From an uncultured Bordetella sp. (lineage in GTDB: Bacteria; Pseudomonadota; Gammaproteobacteria; Burkholderiales; SG8-41): a DNA stretch of 64,000 nucleotides. The translations under genes were made by a program, and so were the position numbers. The stretch spans positions 40,454-104,453 of the forward strand of contig CAZHFZ010000001.1 of NCBI GenBank assembly GCA_964531455.1, given 5' to 3'. Under the pieces are notes generated by a model. It was not told the origin of the DNA. It searched no databases and saw nothing but the letters and a program-made list of their open reading frames with translations. Within the stretch, counting starts at the first letter, position 1, and each line of letters begins with the position of its first letter. Positions 45,637 through 56,410 of the stretch are shown here, one piece after another.

Positions 45637-47751
45637 TCAGCGCAGCGAAGCACCATCCTTCAGAATTTTCGGGGAGATGAAGATCAGCAGTTCGCGCCGG
45701 TCGTCCACACGCTGGTTGTTCTTGAACAGGAACCCGACGTAAGGCAGGTCACCGAGAACAGGAACCTTAGTTGTGGTTGAACGCTCGTCCTGGGTATAGA
45801 TACCGCCGATCACGACCGTGCCGCCATTCTCAACCAGCACTTCTGTAGCTACCTGCTTGGTGTCGATTGACGGTCCGGAAAGAGTGTTCTGGCCAACACT
45901 GTCCTTATTGACCTTGAGATTCATGATCACATTGTCGTCCGGCGTAATCTGTGGTTTTACCTTAAGCGACAGTGTTGCCTTTCGGAAGGAAACGCTGGTT
46001 GCACCGCTGGAGGTAGCCTGCTGGTATGGAATCTCCGTGCCCTGCTCGATCGTTGCTTCGATCTTGTCAGCGGTAATGACGCGCGGGCTTGAAATGATTT
46101 TGCCCTTGCCATCAGCTTGAAGTGCCGAGAGCTCCAGATTAAGGAATTTGGTGCTCTTGTCGTTGAACAGCAGGAAGGAGAACACGCCAGGGTTTGCGCC
46201 GGACAAGCCTTGTGCAGGCAGGTTGACGAACAGCGATTCGTTGAATTGCGGCGTAGTGGCAATCTGACCGGTGGTAAATCCAGTAGAAGACAGTGAACCG
46301 CCGGCCAGCGCATTTACACCTTGGCCGCTACCAACCCGGAAGCCTTGTCCAGTGCGGTCATTGAAACCGAGGCGAGCGCCGAGGTTGCGGCTGAACGTGT
46401 CGTTTGCTTCAACAATGCGTGACTCGATCATCACCTGACGAACGGGGATATCGATCTGCTTCAGCAGTTTGCGAACTTCTTCAAGACGCGTGGCGGTATC
46501 CTGGACAAACACGGTGTTGGTACGCACGTCGACAACGGCGCTGCCGCGTTTTGAAAGAATGCGCTGCTTCGGATCGGACAGCAGCGTCTGGAAGTCGGCT
46601 GCTTTCTGGTAATTCACTTGCATGCTCTCGGTACGTAGCGGCTCGAGATCGGCGATTTGCGACCGAGCTTCCAGCGCGAGTTTCTCGCGGGTGGCCAGTT
46701 CATCACGCGGTGCGATCCACACCACATTGCCGGTTTTGCGCATGTCCAAACCCTTGCTCTGGAGAATGATATCCAGTGCCTGGTCCCAAGGCACATCCTT
46801 GAGGCGGAGCGTGAGGCTGCCGCCCACGGTGTCGCTGGTAATCACGTTCAAGCCCGTGAAATCGGCGATGACTTGGAGAACTGCCCGTACTTCGACGTTC
46901 TGGAAATTCAGAGATAGCTTTTCACCGGAAAAGCCTGGTTGAACGAGACGGTTGCCGTCATCGACAACTCTCTTGACCTCAACAATGAAGCGATTGTCGG
47001 TCTGGTAGGCGGAATGCTCCCAGGCGCCACGCGGGGTGATGACCATGCGCGTGCCATTACCTTGGGCATAGGTTTCGATGCTTTCTACCGGTGTGCCGAA
47101 GTCGACGACATCAAGTCGGCGGGCAAGGTTTTTAGGTACTGCGGTATTTATAAAATCGATAATCAGTGAGCGGCCCTGCGTGCGCAGATCGATGCCGACC
47201 TGATTGTCGGACAGGTCAACCATGATGCGCCCCTCACCAGTGCGGCCGCGACGGAAATCCACATCGCGCAGGCTGTGTTTGCCGTCACCCGGCTTAACCT
47301 GAGCGAAGGTCTGCGCGGCAGGTGCTGGCGTCGAGGTGCCAGCAGAAGCGGAACCGCCGAGTGTGACCAGAATGGTGTTGCCTTCGATCTTGGCGTCATA
47401 ACCCAGCTGGCGCGAAGTCTCGAGCACCAGGCGTGAACGATCACCGGCCTGCACAATATTGATGCGGCGGACATCACCTTCACCGATTTCGTGGGTGGTT
47501 TTGCCGGAGCCGTTGGTTGTGCCGGGAAAGTCAAACGCGATTCGCGGCGGATTATTGACCACAAAGCTTGCGGGTGTCGCCGCTGGCGTACCTTTAAGAG
47601 TGATCTTTACAAGTGTAGATCCGCCCTGCTGAGCCGAAACATTAACCGCTTCGATGCTGTTCTGGGCATATGCCGATGTCGTAGCAATGGCGAAACACGC
47701 TGACGCCAAAAGTTTGGACATGCGGGTCATGGACTTTAAAAAACGAATCAT
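45637..47751 (-). CDS. pilQ: Type IV pilus secretin PilQ
   Basis: Signal peptide, AMIN domains, GEKLSLNFQ, VPWDQALD, QVMIESRIVEA, KVPVLGDLP...RELLIFISPKI. Confidence 0.96.
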   Translation of the reverse strand: MIRFLKSMTRMSKLLASACFAIATTSAYAQNSIEAVNVSAQQGGSTLVKITLKGTPAATPASFVVNNPPRIAFDFPGTTNGSGKTTHEIGEGDVRRINIVQAGDRSRLVLETSRQLGYDAKIEGNTILVTLGGSASAGTSTPAPAAQTFAQVKPGDGKHSLRDVDFRRGRTGEGRIMVDLSDNQVGIDLRTQGRSLIIDFINTAVPKNLARRLDVVDFGTPVESIETYAQGNGTRMVITPRGAWEHSAYQTDNRFIVEVKRVVDDGNRLVQPGFSGEKLSLNFQNVEVRAVLQVIADFTGLNVITSDTVGGSLTLRLKDVPWDQALDIILQSKGLDMRKTGNVVWIAPRDELATREKLALEARSQIADLEPLRTESMQVNYQKAADFQTLLSDPKQRILSKRGSAVVDVRTNTVFVQDTATRLEEVRKLLKQIDIPVRQVMIESRIVEANDTFSRNLGARLGFNDRTGQGFRVGSGQGVNALAGGSLSSTGFTTGQIATTPQFNESLFVNLPAQGLSGANPGVFSFLLFNDKSTKFLNLELSALQADGKGKIISSPRVITADKIEATIEQGTEIPYQQATSSGATSVSFRKATLSLKVKPQITPDDNVIMNLKVNKDSVGQNTLSGPSIDTKQVATEVLVENGGTVVIGGIYTQDERSTTTKVPVLGDLPYVGFLFKNNQRVDDRRELLIFISPKILKDGASLR

Positions 47752-53867: not shown

Positions 53868-54908
<1,041 letters not shown>

Positions 54909-54928
54909 TTAAGGTTCTGCCGAAGCGG

Positions 54929-54955
54929 GAACTATTTATGATTATAGTCGTCTGA
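54929..54955 (+). promoter_or_regulatory. Putative sigmaE (RpoE/AlgU-type) promoter
   Basis: GAACTA-N16-TCTGA versus consensus GAACTT-N16-TCTGA/TCAAA; predicted +1 ~54961-54962, at the first sRNA hairpin. Confidence 0.55.
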
Positions 54956-54961
54956 TATTGC

Positions 54962-55063
54962 AGATGGCTTAGGTCATCGCCCGCTTCCCTCCCTGAGCGG
55001 GTGCCTTAATGCTAGTTAAGGCTCTTCACCCCCGGTTTACTCCCCTTAACCGGGGGCTTTTTA
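54962..55063 (+). ncRNA. Small RNA, anti-hemB-like, with CU-rich loops and intrinsic terminator
   Basis: Four consecutive hairpins: GATGGC-ttag-GTCATC; GCCCGCT-tccctccctg-AGCGGGT; GCCTTAA-tgctag-TTAAGGC; CCCCCGGTT-tactcccctt-AACCGGGGG-cTTTTT. Opposite strand to and upstream of hemB, as described for the anti-hemB motif. Confidence 0.75.
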
Positions 55064-55654
55064 TTTTTTTAGCCAACGCGCGACGACTGCTTGTGCCTGC
55101 TTGACGCCGGTTTTATTGGCGCCGGAAAAAATCTGTGCTGTGGCTTCGCCGGGATAGTGTTTCAACTCTTCTTCAGTACGTTGCAGTACTACTGTGGATT
55201 CCTGGCGCGTCAGCTTGTCTGATTTGGTCAGAAGGATGTGCACGGCCTTGCCGGTCGGTGCCAGCCAATCAAGCATCTGCCAATCCAGTGGCTTTAGACC
55301 ATGACGGGCGTCAACAACAATAACCAATAAAATCAATGCATTACGGTTAGTAATGTAAGTGCTGATTAACGCATCCCAGCGTTCCTGTTCCGGTTTCGGA
55401 ACCTTTGCATAGCCATAACCGGGCAAATCAACCAAGGAACAATGATTGCCCATGTCGAAAAAATTGATGGCTTGGGTACGACCGGGAGTTTTGCTGACAA
55501 ATGCCAGTTTGCGACGATTGGCCAGCGCGTTGATCGCAGTGGATTTTCCGGCATTGGAACGGCCGGCAAATGCCACCTCGGCACCCTGATCCGGGGGCAT
55601 ATCGGCGATCTGATGTACGGCATAGCGGAATTCAAGTTGAGAGAACAGGGACAC
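55061..55654 (-). CDS. engB: Ribosome biogenesis GTPase EngB (YihA/YsxC)
   Basis: AFAGRSNAGKS, SKTPGRTQ, DLPGYGYA, TKSDK. Confidence 0.96.
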   Translation of the reverse strand: MSLFSQLEFRYAVHQIADMPPDQGAEVAFAGRSNAGKSTAINALANRRKLAFVSKTPGRTQAINFFDMGNHCSLVDLPGYGYAKVPKPEQERWDALISTYITNRNALILLVIVVDARHGLKPLDWQMLDWLAPTGKAVHILLTKSDKLTRQESTVVLQRTEEELKHYPGEATAQIFSGANKTGVKQAQAVVARWLKK

Positions 55655-55747: not shown

Positions 55748-56410
55748 ATGGATTACCGCCGCACCAATCGCCAACTGAAAATCTGGCGGCTGTTGACCGC
55801 AGTGGTAGTGGCACTCGTCGCTCCTGCGGCCATGGCGCAAGGCGTTATCAAGGGTGATCCGGCCAAAGCCCAGCCCATCGTGACCCAGGTTTGCGCGGCC
55901 TGCCATGCGGCTGACGGCAACAGTGCGATTCCGGCCAACCCCAGTCTGGCCGGCCAGCATCCCGAATACACCTACAAACAGCTGCGCAACTTCAAGTCGC
56001 AGGGTGGTAAACCCGCAGAGCGCAACAACGGCGTGATGGCAGGCATGGTGGCCAACCTGTCGGATGATGACATGAAGAATATCGCTGCTTACTATGCTGA
56101 GCAGAAACCCAAGCCGCGTGCAGCCCGTGACGCAGCCCTTGCTAAACAGGGAGAAGCCATATACCGCGGTGGCATCCAGGCCAAGGGCGTAGCATCCTGC
56201 GCATCCTGCCATTCGCCAAACGGTGCCGGAATTCCGGCGCAATTTCCCCGGGTGGCCGGACAACATGCCGAATACACGATTGCCCAGCTGACGGCGTTCC
56301 GTGCCGGCCTGCGCGCCAACGACCCGGCCCAGATGATGCGGATGATCGCTGCCAAAATGAGTGATCAGGAAATCAAAGCCGTATCCGAGTACATCGCGGG
56401 TTTGCGCTGA
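55748..56410 (+). CDS. Diheme cytochrome c4
   Basis: Signal peptide, two CxxCH motifs (CAACH, CASCH), P.LAGQH.EY repeats, Met ligands. Confidence 0.93.
   Translation: MDYRRTNRQLKIWRLLTAVVVALVAPAAMAQGVIKGDPAKAQPIVTQVCAACHAADGNSAIPANPSLAGQHPEYTYKQLRNFKSQGGKPAERNNGVMAGMVANLSDDDMKNIAAYYAEQKPKPRAARDAALAKQGEAIYRGGIQAKGVASCASCHSPNGAGIPAQFPRVAGQHAEYTIAQLTAFRAGLRANDPAQMMRMIAAKMSDQEIKAVSEYIAGLR

Follow-up and report, generated by a model that had tools for sequence, protein, structure and literature searches.

What controls the anti-hemB RNA, and what does it act on? The motif has stood as an orphan since 2007. Its name refers to hemB, and on that name a preprint of 2026 (10.64898/2026.09.01.748597) builds an account of heme regulation. 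One copy of the RNA lies in the window analyzed here, a 64-kb stretch of contig CAZHFZ010000001.1 (positions 40,454 to 104,453) from an uncultured Bordetella sp. of the order Burkholderiales, where it occupies the + strand between hemB and engB, both of which are on the - strand. Comparison of this locus with its relatives points instead to engB as the conserved partner and to a sigmaE-type promoter as the conserved control element. On the evidence set out below, we consider it probable that the window RNA is a small RNA (sRNA) that is driven by sigmaE and regulates its targets in trans through its loops.

The RNA family itself, sigmaE-dependent sRNAs, and the polA locus as a host of sRNAs in several groups are already in print; for the polA locus, the RNAs reported are sX13, Spot 42, and the alpha-r7 family (PMC3771888). 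In the open PMC and bioRxiv literature, we found neither a conserved sigmaE-type promoter of anti-hemB, nor engB rather than hemB as its conserved neighbor, nor the anti-hemB family across other Gammaproteobacteria, nor a link between anti-hemB, sX13, and ErsA, the last two of which are never named together there. Two transcriptome papers (PMC7563307 and PMC12322963) make no mention of an anti-hemB RNA.

A predicted anti-hemB family RNA between hemB and engB

The Rfam model of anti-hemB (RF02837) matches positions 54977-55064 on the + strand at 69.9 bits (gathering score, 49.5; E = 2.6e-14). The match covers the complete model (positions 1 to 81) and is the sole gathering-level Rfam match in the window. 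All features of the family are present, namely, a hairpin with a CCUCCCUGAG loop, a second hairpin, and a terminator hairpin followed by a U-tract, and the RNA is placed as expected for anti-hemB, upstream of hemB on the opposite strand. In the minimum free energy (MFE) fold, four hairpins follow one another; the energy of the fold is -47.9 kcal/mol (z = -4.82), a value that 0 of 200 shuffled sequences match. A first-pass annotation, made from the letters of the sequence, had described a + strand unit of four hairpins with two C-rich loops and a terminator whose U-tract runs over the engB stop codon. It was correct in every detail, with the stop codon at 55061-55063 inside the T-run of the terminator, and the anti-hemB motif that it had brought up is the one matched by Rfam. 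Judged from sequence and predicted structure, membership in the anti-hemB family is nearly certain.

The fold is conserved well beyond the window. RF02837 scores above its cutoff in 107 of 151 genomes of the same order (a sample at least 90% complete), from which 132 above-threshold copies were taken; the copy from one unpublished genome (G049) was omitted, leaving 131 that were counted. When these 131 copies are aligned, 93.6% of the cells in the four hairpins are paired, compared with 85.1% in shuffled alignments, and 25 of the 27 pairs carry changes on both sides. None of 500 shuffles attains the observed values, and controls in which the structure was slid along the alignment are only 33 to 53% paired. 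The alignment supports all four hairpins that the first-pass annotation had seen in a single sequence. Hairpin 1 (helix 1 of the alignment, seven pairs) shows double changes at all seven of its pairs, with 90.8% of its cells paired across the 131 sequences. Since this hairpin lies outside the Rfam model and nevertheless covaries throughout, the RNA appears to start at its foot. The CCUCCCUGAG stretch in hairpin 2 is the most conserved of the family, on a stem that is 97.6% paired. Helices 3 and 4, which make up hairpin 3, are 93.3% and 90.6% paired, with double changes at all six pairs; the loop of this hairpin reads CCCCAA in gammaproteobacterial relatives. In the terminator (helix 5), all eight pairs covary.

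The same alignment bears on which strand is folded. Weinberg et al. noted comparable conservation on both strands in 2007 and left the strand unsettled, as reported in PMC1950547. Read on the + strand, the alignment contains 243 G-U pairs and 46 A-C mismatches; because G-U pairs outnumber A-C mismatches to this extent, the + strand is evidently the folded one, and we take the ratio to settle the question left in 2007.

What appears to be the only studied member of RF02837 is ncS04 of B. cenocepacia, located between BCAL0264 (hemB) and BCAL0265 (engB) and described as a 105-nt transcript that has a mapped start and includes hairpin 1 (PMC5688073). Detection by differential RNA sequencing and on Northern blots and copurification with Hfq are reported for it (PMC5688073 and PMC4603805). 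The window locus resembles that of ncS04 in its gene order (divergent from hemB, convergent with engB), its four hairpins, and its CCUCCCUGAG loop. MtvR, considered as a possible alias of ncS04, was ruled out, as it is described as an RNA of 136 nt restricted to the B. cepacia complex.

Further copies of the RNA occur in some genomes. The window's own genome contains a weak second anti-hemB-like match (C6:30293-30373; RF02837, 30.5 bits; 15.9 bits with R1, a second model introduced below), which consists of a terminator hairpin after a C-rich stretch, lacks sigmaE boxes upstream, and is probably no paralog. Tandem copies spaced 180 to 300 nt apart were found at L061/L063 (genomes G062 and G113), at L175 (G295), and at L178 (G221). 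In G062 and G113, a third copy adjoins hemB and has a degenerate -35 box (GGAAGTC); these copies resemble sibling sRNAs.

A conserved sigmaE-type promoter upstream of hairpin 1

SigmaE promoters combine a GGAACTT-like -35 box with a TCTGA/TCAAA-like -10 box 16 to 17 nt away, and transcription starts 6 to 8 nt downstream. In the window, the first-pass annotation had read GAACTA-N16-TCTGA as a promoter setting position +1 at the first hairpin. Both boxes are present, and A54962, 6 nt past the -10 box, directly precedes hairpin 1. The full motif, GGGAACTA-N16-TCTGA, equals what we take to be the RpoE/AlgU consensus (GGAACTT-N16-TCTGA). On a position weight matrix (PWM), the window promoter scores 19.4, whereas the highest score among 1054 control windows is 14.5; by this measure, the match is not a chance one.

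Conservation of the motif in homologs, on which the annotation's reading depended, proved extensive. PWM scores exceed the 99th percentile of the 1054 controls in 116 of the 131 same-order copies, representing 58 of 69 genera and 42 of 47 families. The pattern GAACNN-N15-17-TCNNA occurs within the 80 bases searched upstream of 104 of 131 copies, and the strict pattern GAACTN-N16-TCNNA occurs at 75 of 131. By comparison, the strict pattern is found in none of 132 reverse complements and in none of 131 windows placed 420 to 500 bases upstream, and its mean is 0.075 per shuffled set. Among 114 homologous promoters, the -35 box is a near-invariant G/T-GAACT-T/A, while the -10 box varies among TCTGA (29 copies), TCTTA (26), TCTCA (8), and TCATA (6). 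The spacer sequence varies freely between families, whereas the two boxes stay the same and lie at a constant distance from hairpin 1, the -10 box ending 20 to 23 nt ahead of the Rfam start in most copies. The promoter also extends outside the order: the matrix, derived from betaproteobacterial copies, detects it at the usual distance in 50 of 54 outside-order copies (described below) and also fits true ErsA genes, 47 of 49 of them.

The sigma factor expected to read such a promoter is encoded in the same genome, where an RpoE gene (TIGR02939, 321.5 bits; cutoff, 236) is followed directly downstream by RseA_N and MucB/RseB genes. RpoE is above its family cutoff in 54 of 61 genomes of the order. 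At a constant distance of about 140 to 160 nt upstream of rpoE, a related motif occurs (TGAACT[AT]-N16/17-GTCT[TG]T), which lies above the 95th percentile of controls in 19 of 29 genomes.

Elsewhere in the window's genome, an identical strong sigmaE-like motif, GGGAACTT-N17-TCTTAG, is present at C10:65440 (-) and C29:46240 (+). The latter is about 50 bases from a contig end, and the motif may be a repeat at which the assembly broke.

SigmaE, sigma70, or another sigma factor

The sigmaE reading competes first with a housekeeping promoter. On this alternative, sigma70 transcribes the RNA constitutively from TATAGT, with a start near 54955, and GGAACT/TCTGA is unused in this organism. The first-pass annotation had named TATGAT/TATAGT at 54937-54948 as the elements to look to, and both are indeed there, inside the sigmaE spacer. 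A TATAAT-like hexamer (5 of 6 positions) is found in the spacer or -10 region of 27 of 117 promoters. The window's genus accounts for 17 of these, and 6 more of its promoters match at 4 of 6 positions. Throughout this genus, the spacer element GATTATAG(T/C)CG (window positions 54940-54950) is near invariant, with one deviating copy among 24, and the bases next to it in the spacer vary. Possible explanations for the element are a sigma70 -10 box, a site for a regulator, or a discriminator preferred by the local RpoE. Given the conserved TATAGT, it is possible that sigma70 initiates about 7 nt farther upstream in the window, either by itself or alongside the sigmaE start.

The Burkholderia-like member of the family gives this alternative its clearest example. 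Its locus (L037, in the large genome G059) has no sigmaE boxes and carries instead, some 30 nt ahead of the Rfam start, a TATGAT, a sigma70-like -10 box that precedes by 6 nt the position at which ncS04 was mapped to start. The boxes are also missing at L088, L090, L091, L126, and L129. SigmaE control thus does not extend to the whole family, and the contrast between the Burkholderia-like locus and the window with most of the family points to a switch from a sigmaE-type to a sigma70-type promoter. Consistent with constitutive expression, ncS04 is reported to show no significant change in seven conditions assayed by quantitative PCR, osmotic stress and low pH included (PMC5688073 and PMC4603805).

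Several further results weigh against sigmaE control, together with the Burkholderia-like locus, the unresponsive ncS04, and the conserved TATAGT. In the same order, 15 of 132 copies fall below the PWM threshold, and the matrix was trained on part of the data that it scored, an overlap from which the pattern counts are free. The motif upstream of rpoE has a TCTTT-like -10 box without the final A of TCTNA, and in none of the 29 genomes does it exceed the control maximum. GAACT[TA]-N15-17-TCTNA occurs 12 times genome-wide on both strands, against our own rough chance estimate of about 17; the motif alone therefore defines no regulon. Three lake-water runs (5 to 9% of sampled words) yielded, over 54700-55300, one 77-base contig piece on hemB and none on the sRNA, a result that is uninformative either way.

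Transcription by sigma70 alone nonetheless seems unlikely to us. A sigma70 scan of 54700-55300 yields no promoter with an acceptable -35 box. Most other families lack the TATAAT-like element, whereas 42 of 47 retain the sigmaE boxes. Finally, with a start near 54955, the RNA would have extra unpaired bases ahead of hairpin 1, the foot of which is otherwise fixed 6 to 8 nt past TCTNA.

The promoter could also be read by an extracytoplasmic function (ECF) sigma factor other than the RpoE/RseA system, which we regard as distinctly improbable. A -35 box of the GGAAC type serves many ECF sigma factors, and four sigma-70/ECF-like matches weaker than RpoE occur in the genome. However, TCTGA with a 16-nt spacer is, as we understand the consensus, of the RpoE/AlgU type; a closely similar motif precedes the rpoE-rseA-rseB operon; and the occurrence of RpoE across the order matches the breadth of the motif. 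Moreover, the same matrix fits ErsA, which is reported to depend on sigma22/AlgU in P. aeruginosa (PMC8575079).

Gene neighborhood of the RNA

Within the order, the 3' end of engB adjoins 119 of the 131 copies. In 105 of these the gene is convergent with the RNA, and in the remaining 14 it is codirectional and immediately upstream, with no hemB present. hemB neighbors 107 copies and is absent from 24. Outside the order, we sampled one genome per family across the class, leaving two unpublished genomes unused. RF02837 matches at E ≤ 0.001 in 74 of these 149 genomes, 8 of them above the cutoff, and the best 54 copies, from 52 genomes, form the outside-order set. The commonest arrangement, in 23 of the 54, places the RNA downstream of polA and convergent with engB; in 12 others engB alone is in the same position, in 6 polA alone, and in 2 the arrangement is inverted. 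polA is present at 31 of the 54 loci, and hemB neighbors none of them. A gene for a diheme cytochrome c follows past engB at most betaproteobacterial loci, at many gammaproteobacterial loci, and at the Pseudomonadaceae/ErsA loci. By this comparison of gene order, the conserved neighbor is engB, with hemB a neighbor only within the order, and the conserved block is sRNA-engB-cytochrome c.

The first-pass annotation had proposed the RNA as a positional counterpart of ErsA and Spot 42, both of which are described in a polA-sRNA-engB arrangement (PMC8575079; bioRxiv 10.64898/2026.07.10.737749). polA and engB flank the RNA in 22 of 29 true ErsA loci with long flanks, and in the annotation of E. coli K-12, spf is convergent with yihA/engB and adjoins its 3' end. 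For ErsA, the case is stronger than first proposed, as the outside-order copies with polA and engB are intermediates between the two arrangements and the R1 model described below also detects ErsA. For Spot 42, the correspondence in position stands, and any match in sequence or structure does not.

These neighborhoods also bear on a possible cis action of the RNA on hemB, as antisense or leader, which we hold to be very unlikely. The RNA does lie only 84 nt from the hemB start codon, in divergent orientation; hemB is the upstream neighbor in 107 of 131 same-order copies; the conservation of both strands noted by Weinberg et al. (PMC1950547) would suit an antisense function; and antisense control of heme synthesis is what the preprint mentioned above proposes (10.64898/2026.09.01.748597). 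Yet transcription of the RNA proceeds away from hemB, with no overlap with the hemB open reading frame (ORF). The excess of G-U pairs puts the folded strand opposite hemB, the terminator and promoter are on that same strand, and the start of ncS04 was likewise mapped to the non-hemB strand. Furthermore, hemB is missing at 24 of 131 loci in the order and at all 54 outside it, and the RNA and its promoter persist there.

That the structure is a mere terminator region for engB and its neighbors, with no RNA product of its own, is highly improbable. The terminator does overlap the engB stop codon, and there are weak Rfam matches to unrelated terminator-bearing RNAs. However, it is the + strand that carries the U-tract, and engB would get no U-run from the sequence ahead of the stem. 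Three further covarying hairpins with an invariant loop lie upstream behind a conserved promoter, and homologs are reported as detected transcripts (PMC5688073, PMC3771888, and PMC8575079).

The features of the locus are collected in Table 1.

Table 1. Predicted features of the hemB-engB region, in window coordinates
Feature	Position	Strand	Remarks
hemB (porphobilinogen synthase)	53868-54878	-	NF006762, 5e-152; divergent from sRNA
-35 box GGGAACTA, sigmaE (RpoE/ECF02) type	54927-54934	+	Read in the sequence
TATAGT, sigma70-like -10 hexamer	54943-54948	+	Possible second promoter; mainly in the window's genus
-10 box TCTGA	54951-54955	+	16-nt spacer after the -35 hexamer
Predicted sRNA	54962-55070	+	About 101 to 109 nt; 5' end placed from promoter and hairpin 1; 3' end somewhere in the U-tract
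Hairpin 1	54963-54978	+	Upstream of the Rfam model; 6 pairs in the window MFE fold
Hairpin 2	54979-55002	+	C-rich, anti-Shine-Dalgarno-like loop CCCUCCCU at 54987-54994
Hairpin 3	55003-55022	+	MFE fold
Hairpin 4/terminator stem	55029-55056	+	Second C-rich loop UACUCCCCUU at 55038-55047; MFE fold, terminator scan
U-rich tail	55057-55070	+	3' of hairpin 4
engB/yihA	55061-55654	-	ORF and TIGR03598, 8.1e-66; convergent with sRNA
Diheme c-type cytochrome gene	55748-56410	+	Divergent from engB; member of the conserved block

At one locus (L170 of genome G318), polA and the anti-hemB-like sRNA have a c-di-GMP-I riboswitch (2037-2121 on the - strand, 77.9 bits) between them on the same strand. The riboswitch precedes an open frame of 116 codons, counted from stop to stop.

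Relation to sX13, ErsA, and other sRNAs

A covariance model, R1, was built from 50 outside-order copies only, with none from the ErsA or canonical sX13 families. Over 82 loci (205,626 bases), R1 gives 81 matches at E ≤ 1, every one of them on the sRNA. It detects 4 of 4 betaproteobacterial copies, among them the window RNA (54956-55068, 58.2 bits), and 17 of 17 forms from sister families of the sX13 group. True sX13 is matched at 10 of 10 loci (nine at 37.7 to 47.5 bits and one at 19.4), and ErsA is matched at 49 of 50 (18.5 to 33.7 bits; E from 1.2e-6 to 0.011). On 184,342 control bases, the model finds the window RNA and only two other matches, one of 15.9 bits and one of 7.5 bits. The ErsA loci were obtained from a Pseudomonadaceae-like family that had been located via OprD.

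Individual outside-order copies connect the families as well. One example scores 53.4 bits on anti-hemB and 37.9 bits on Pseudomon-1/ErsA, and when it is aligned to the ErsA model, the two 3' hairpins with C-rich loops match up. One small outside-order group reaches 30 to 37.9 bits on RF01719 at the same RNA; other outside-order copies have about equal anti-hemB and sX13 scores at the same coordinates. The order that contains true sX13 comprises a Xanthomonadaceae-like family, with canonical sX13 downstream of polA, and sister families, with CCUCCCUGAG-loop forms behind TTGAACTT-N16-TCTNA promoters.

ErsA (RF01719) resembles the window RNA in being convergent with the 3' end of engB, in its sigmaE-type promoter by PWM, and in its detection by R1. 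Its two 3' hairpins have C-rich loops, and its UUUUUUUUGCC tail is like that of the outside-order copies. It differs in having a U-rich unpaired 5' part where the window RNA has hairpin 2. The engB side of the locus agrees, with hemB in the window where ErsA has polA. In the window, 54700-55300 gives no RF01719 match at E ≤ 10 (gathering score, 50). Counting against a direct relationship, the anti-hemB model gives true ErsA 19.8 to 21.5 bits (E from 0.28 to 0.86) at 4 of 20 loci, which is not significant, so the link to ErsA is transitive. A search of the class sample with RF01719 gave 0 of 151, in a sample that contained no ErsA-bearing genome.

sX13 of Xanthomonadaceae (RF02232) shares with the window RNA a series of C-rich (4C/5C) apical loops on successive hairpins, three stem-loops in sX13 and four hairpins in the window. 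CCCUCCCU and UACUCCCCUU are loops of this kind, and outside-order relatives have three of them. Like those relatives, sX13 lies downstream of polA. Its C-rich loops are reported to act on G-rich motifs near ribosome-binding sites (RBSs) (PMC3771888). On the other side, the window RNA reaches only 18.5 bits (E = 0.37) on the sX13 model, against a gathering score of 50; true sX13 has the promoter CGAAC[CT]A-N16-GTGTTAT, a poor sigmaE match; and sX13 is reported to be Hfq independent, whereas ncS04 copurified with Hfq. For sX13, accumulation at 37°C and in high salt has been reported. In the true sX13 loci (L238-L246 and L176), CGAAC[CT]A occurs 20 to 50 nt upstream of the Rfam start, and 16 nt on from it stands GTGTTAT/CTTTTAT, not GTCTNA. 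The canonical sX13 promoter may be a decayed or retuned sigmaE promoter.

The resemblance to Spot 42 (RF00021) is confined to position, convergent beside the 3' end of yihA/engB. RF00021 has no match on the window at E ≤ 10; the anti-hemB, sX13, and ErsA models have none at E ≤ 10 on the E. coli spf region; and R1 scores 16.7 bits on spf, which is background level. Spot 42 also differs in its U-rich pairing regions and CRP-controlled sigma70 promoter (see also PMC3771888). With no cross-matches and R1 at background, homology to Spot 42 was dropped. A CUCCUCC-type loop is further shared with RF02278 (Betaproteobacteria toxic small RNA) and with alphaproteobacterial ar14, on which an outside-order relative scores 29.9 and 25.8 bits, both below the gathering scores; these RNAs differ in their two-hairpin architecture and in their loci.

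Taken with the gene neighborhoods, these profile matches incline us, with moderate confidence, to the view that anti-hemB, sX13, and ErsA are orthologs descended from one ancestral sigmaE-controlled gene for a C-rich-loop sRNA at the engB 3' end. The ancestral site, between polA and engB and by a c-type cytochrome gene, would then quite plausibly predate the split between Betaproteobacteria and other Gammaproteobacteria, and the window would more probably than otherwise represent the betaproteobacterial form, with hemB in place of polA. On its position alone, Spot 42 would count as one more descendant there, heavily rebuilt.

Proposed mechanism and its implications

The mechanism that we consider probable would begin with envelope stress, which would release RpoE from RseA. 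The RpoE holoenzyme would then initiate at or near A54962 from GGGAACTA-N16-TCTGA, and the intrinsic terminator, with its U-tract over the engB stop codon, would end the RNA at about 105 nt. Two C-rich single-stranded loops (CCCUCCCU and CUCCCC) would pair with G-rich or Shine-Dalgarno target sequences and lower translation. The sRNA would thus form a noncoding arm of the sigmaE response, and the window copy would be the betaproteobacterial form of an older sRNA gene at the engB 3' end. In enterobacteria, a sigmaE promoter drives the sRNAs MicA, RybB, and MicL, which lower the synthesis of abundant envelope proteins. The logic proposed for the window RNA is the same, but the Rfam scans reveal no sequence relation, and the enterobacterial RNAs use 5' seed regions, not C-rich loops.

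We infer sigmaE dependence, the exact transcript ends, loop-mediated translational repression, and the identity of the targets for the window RNA, and induction by envelope stress and envelope-protein targets are likewise expected rather than observed. Steps of the mechanism have each been shown in a homolog: the sigma dependence in ErsA, the action of loops on G motifs in sX13, and the transcript and its binding to Hfq in ncS04.

If these readings are correct, RpoE would be the regulator of the orphan anti-hemB, the sX13 mode of action would apply to it, and Betaproteobacteria would gain a candidate noncoding arm of the envelope stress response. ErsA affects alginate, the porin OprD, and biofilm, and sX13 affects virulence in a plant pathogen; results would become transferable among the anti-hemB, ErsA, and sX13 systems. 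The locus would also be a base-pairing sRNA locus that persists across a whole class, which is unusual for RNAs generally seen as evolutionarily short-lived, and would rank among the most widely conserved loci of base-pairing regulatory sRNAs known.

Candidate targets

The first-pass annotation had suggested pilQ as a local target, a proposal that fared poorly. This secretin gene (45637-47751, - strand) carries CAGGAGGG before its start. We compared it with the 245 ORF starts in the genome that have GGGAGG, GGAGGG, or GGGGAG 3 to 12 nt upstream; by duplex energy, pilQ ranks 171st of these 245 and is unsupported as a target. Nor does any target class stand out from the duplex ranking, from a search for complementarity of at least 9 nt, or from the Pfam assignments of the candidates, which weighs against the trans-regulation that we favor.

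In the search for complementarity of at least 9 nt, 3 of the 12 candidates checked against Pfam are periplasmic binding proteins of the TctC family. We did not count this as an enrichment, as the genome has at least 150 TctC genes. At least 150 genes for TctC/Bug-family periplasmic receptors (150 scored of 235 candidates) are in themselves a very large expansion for a genome of 3.6 Mb.

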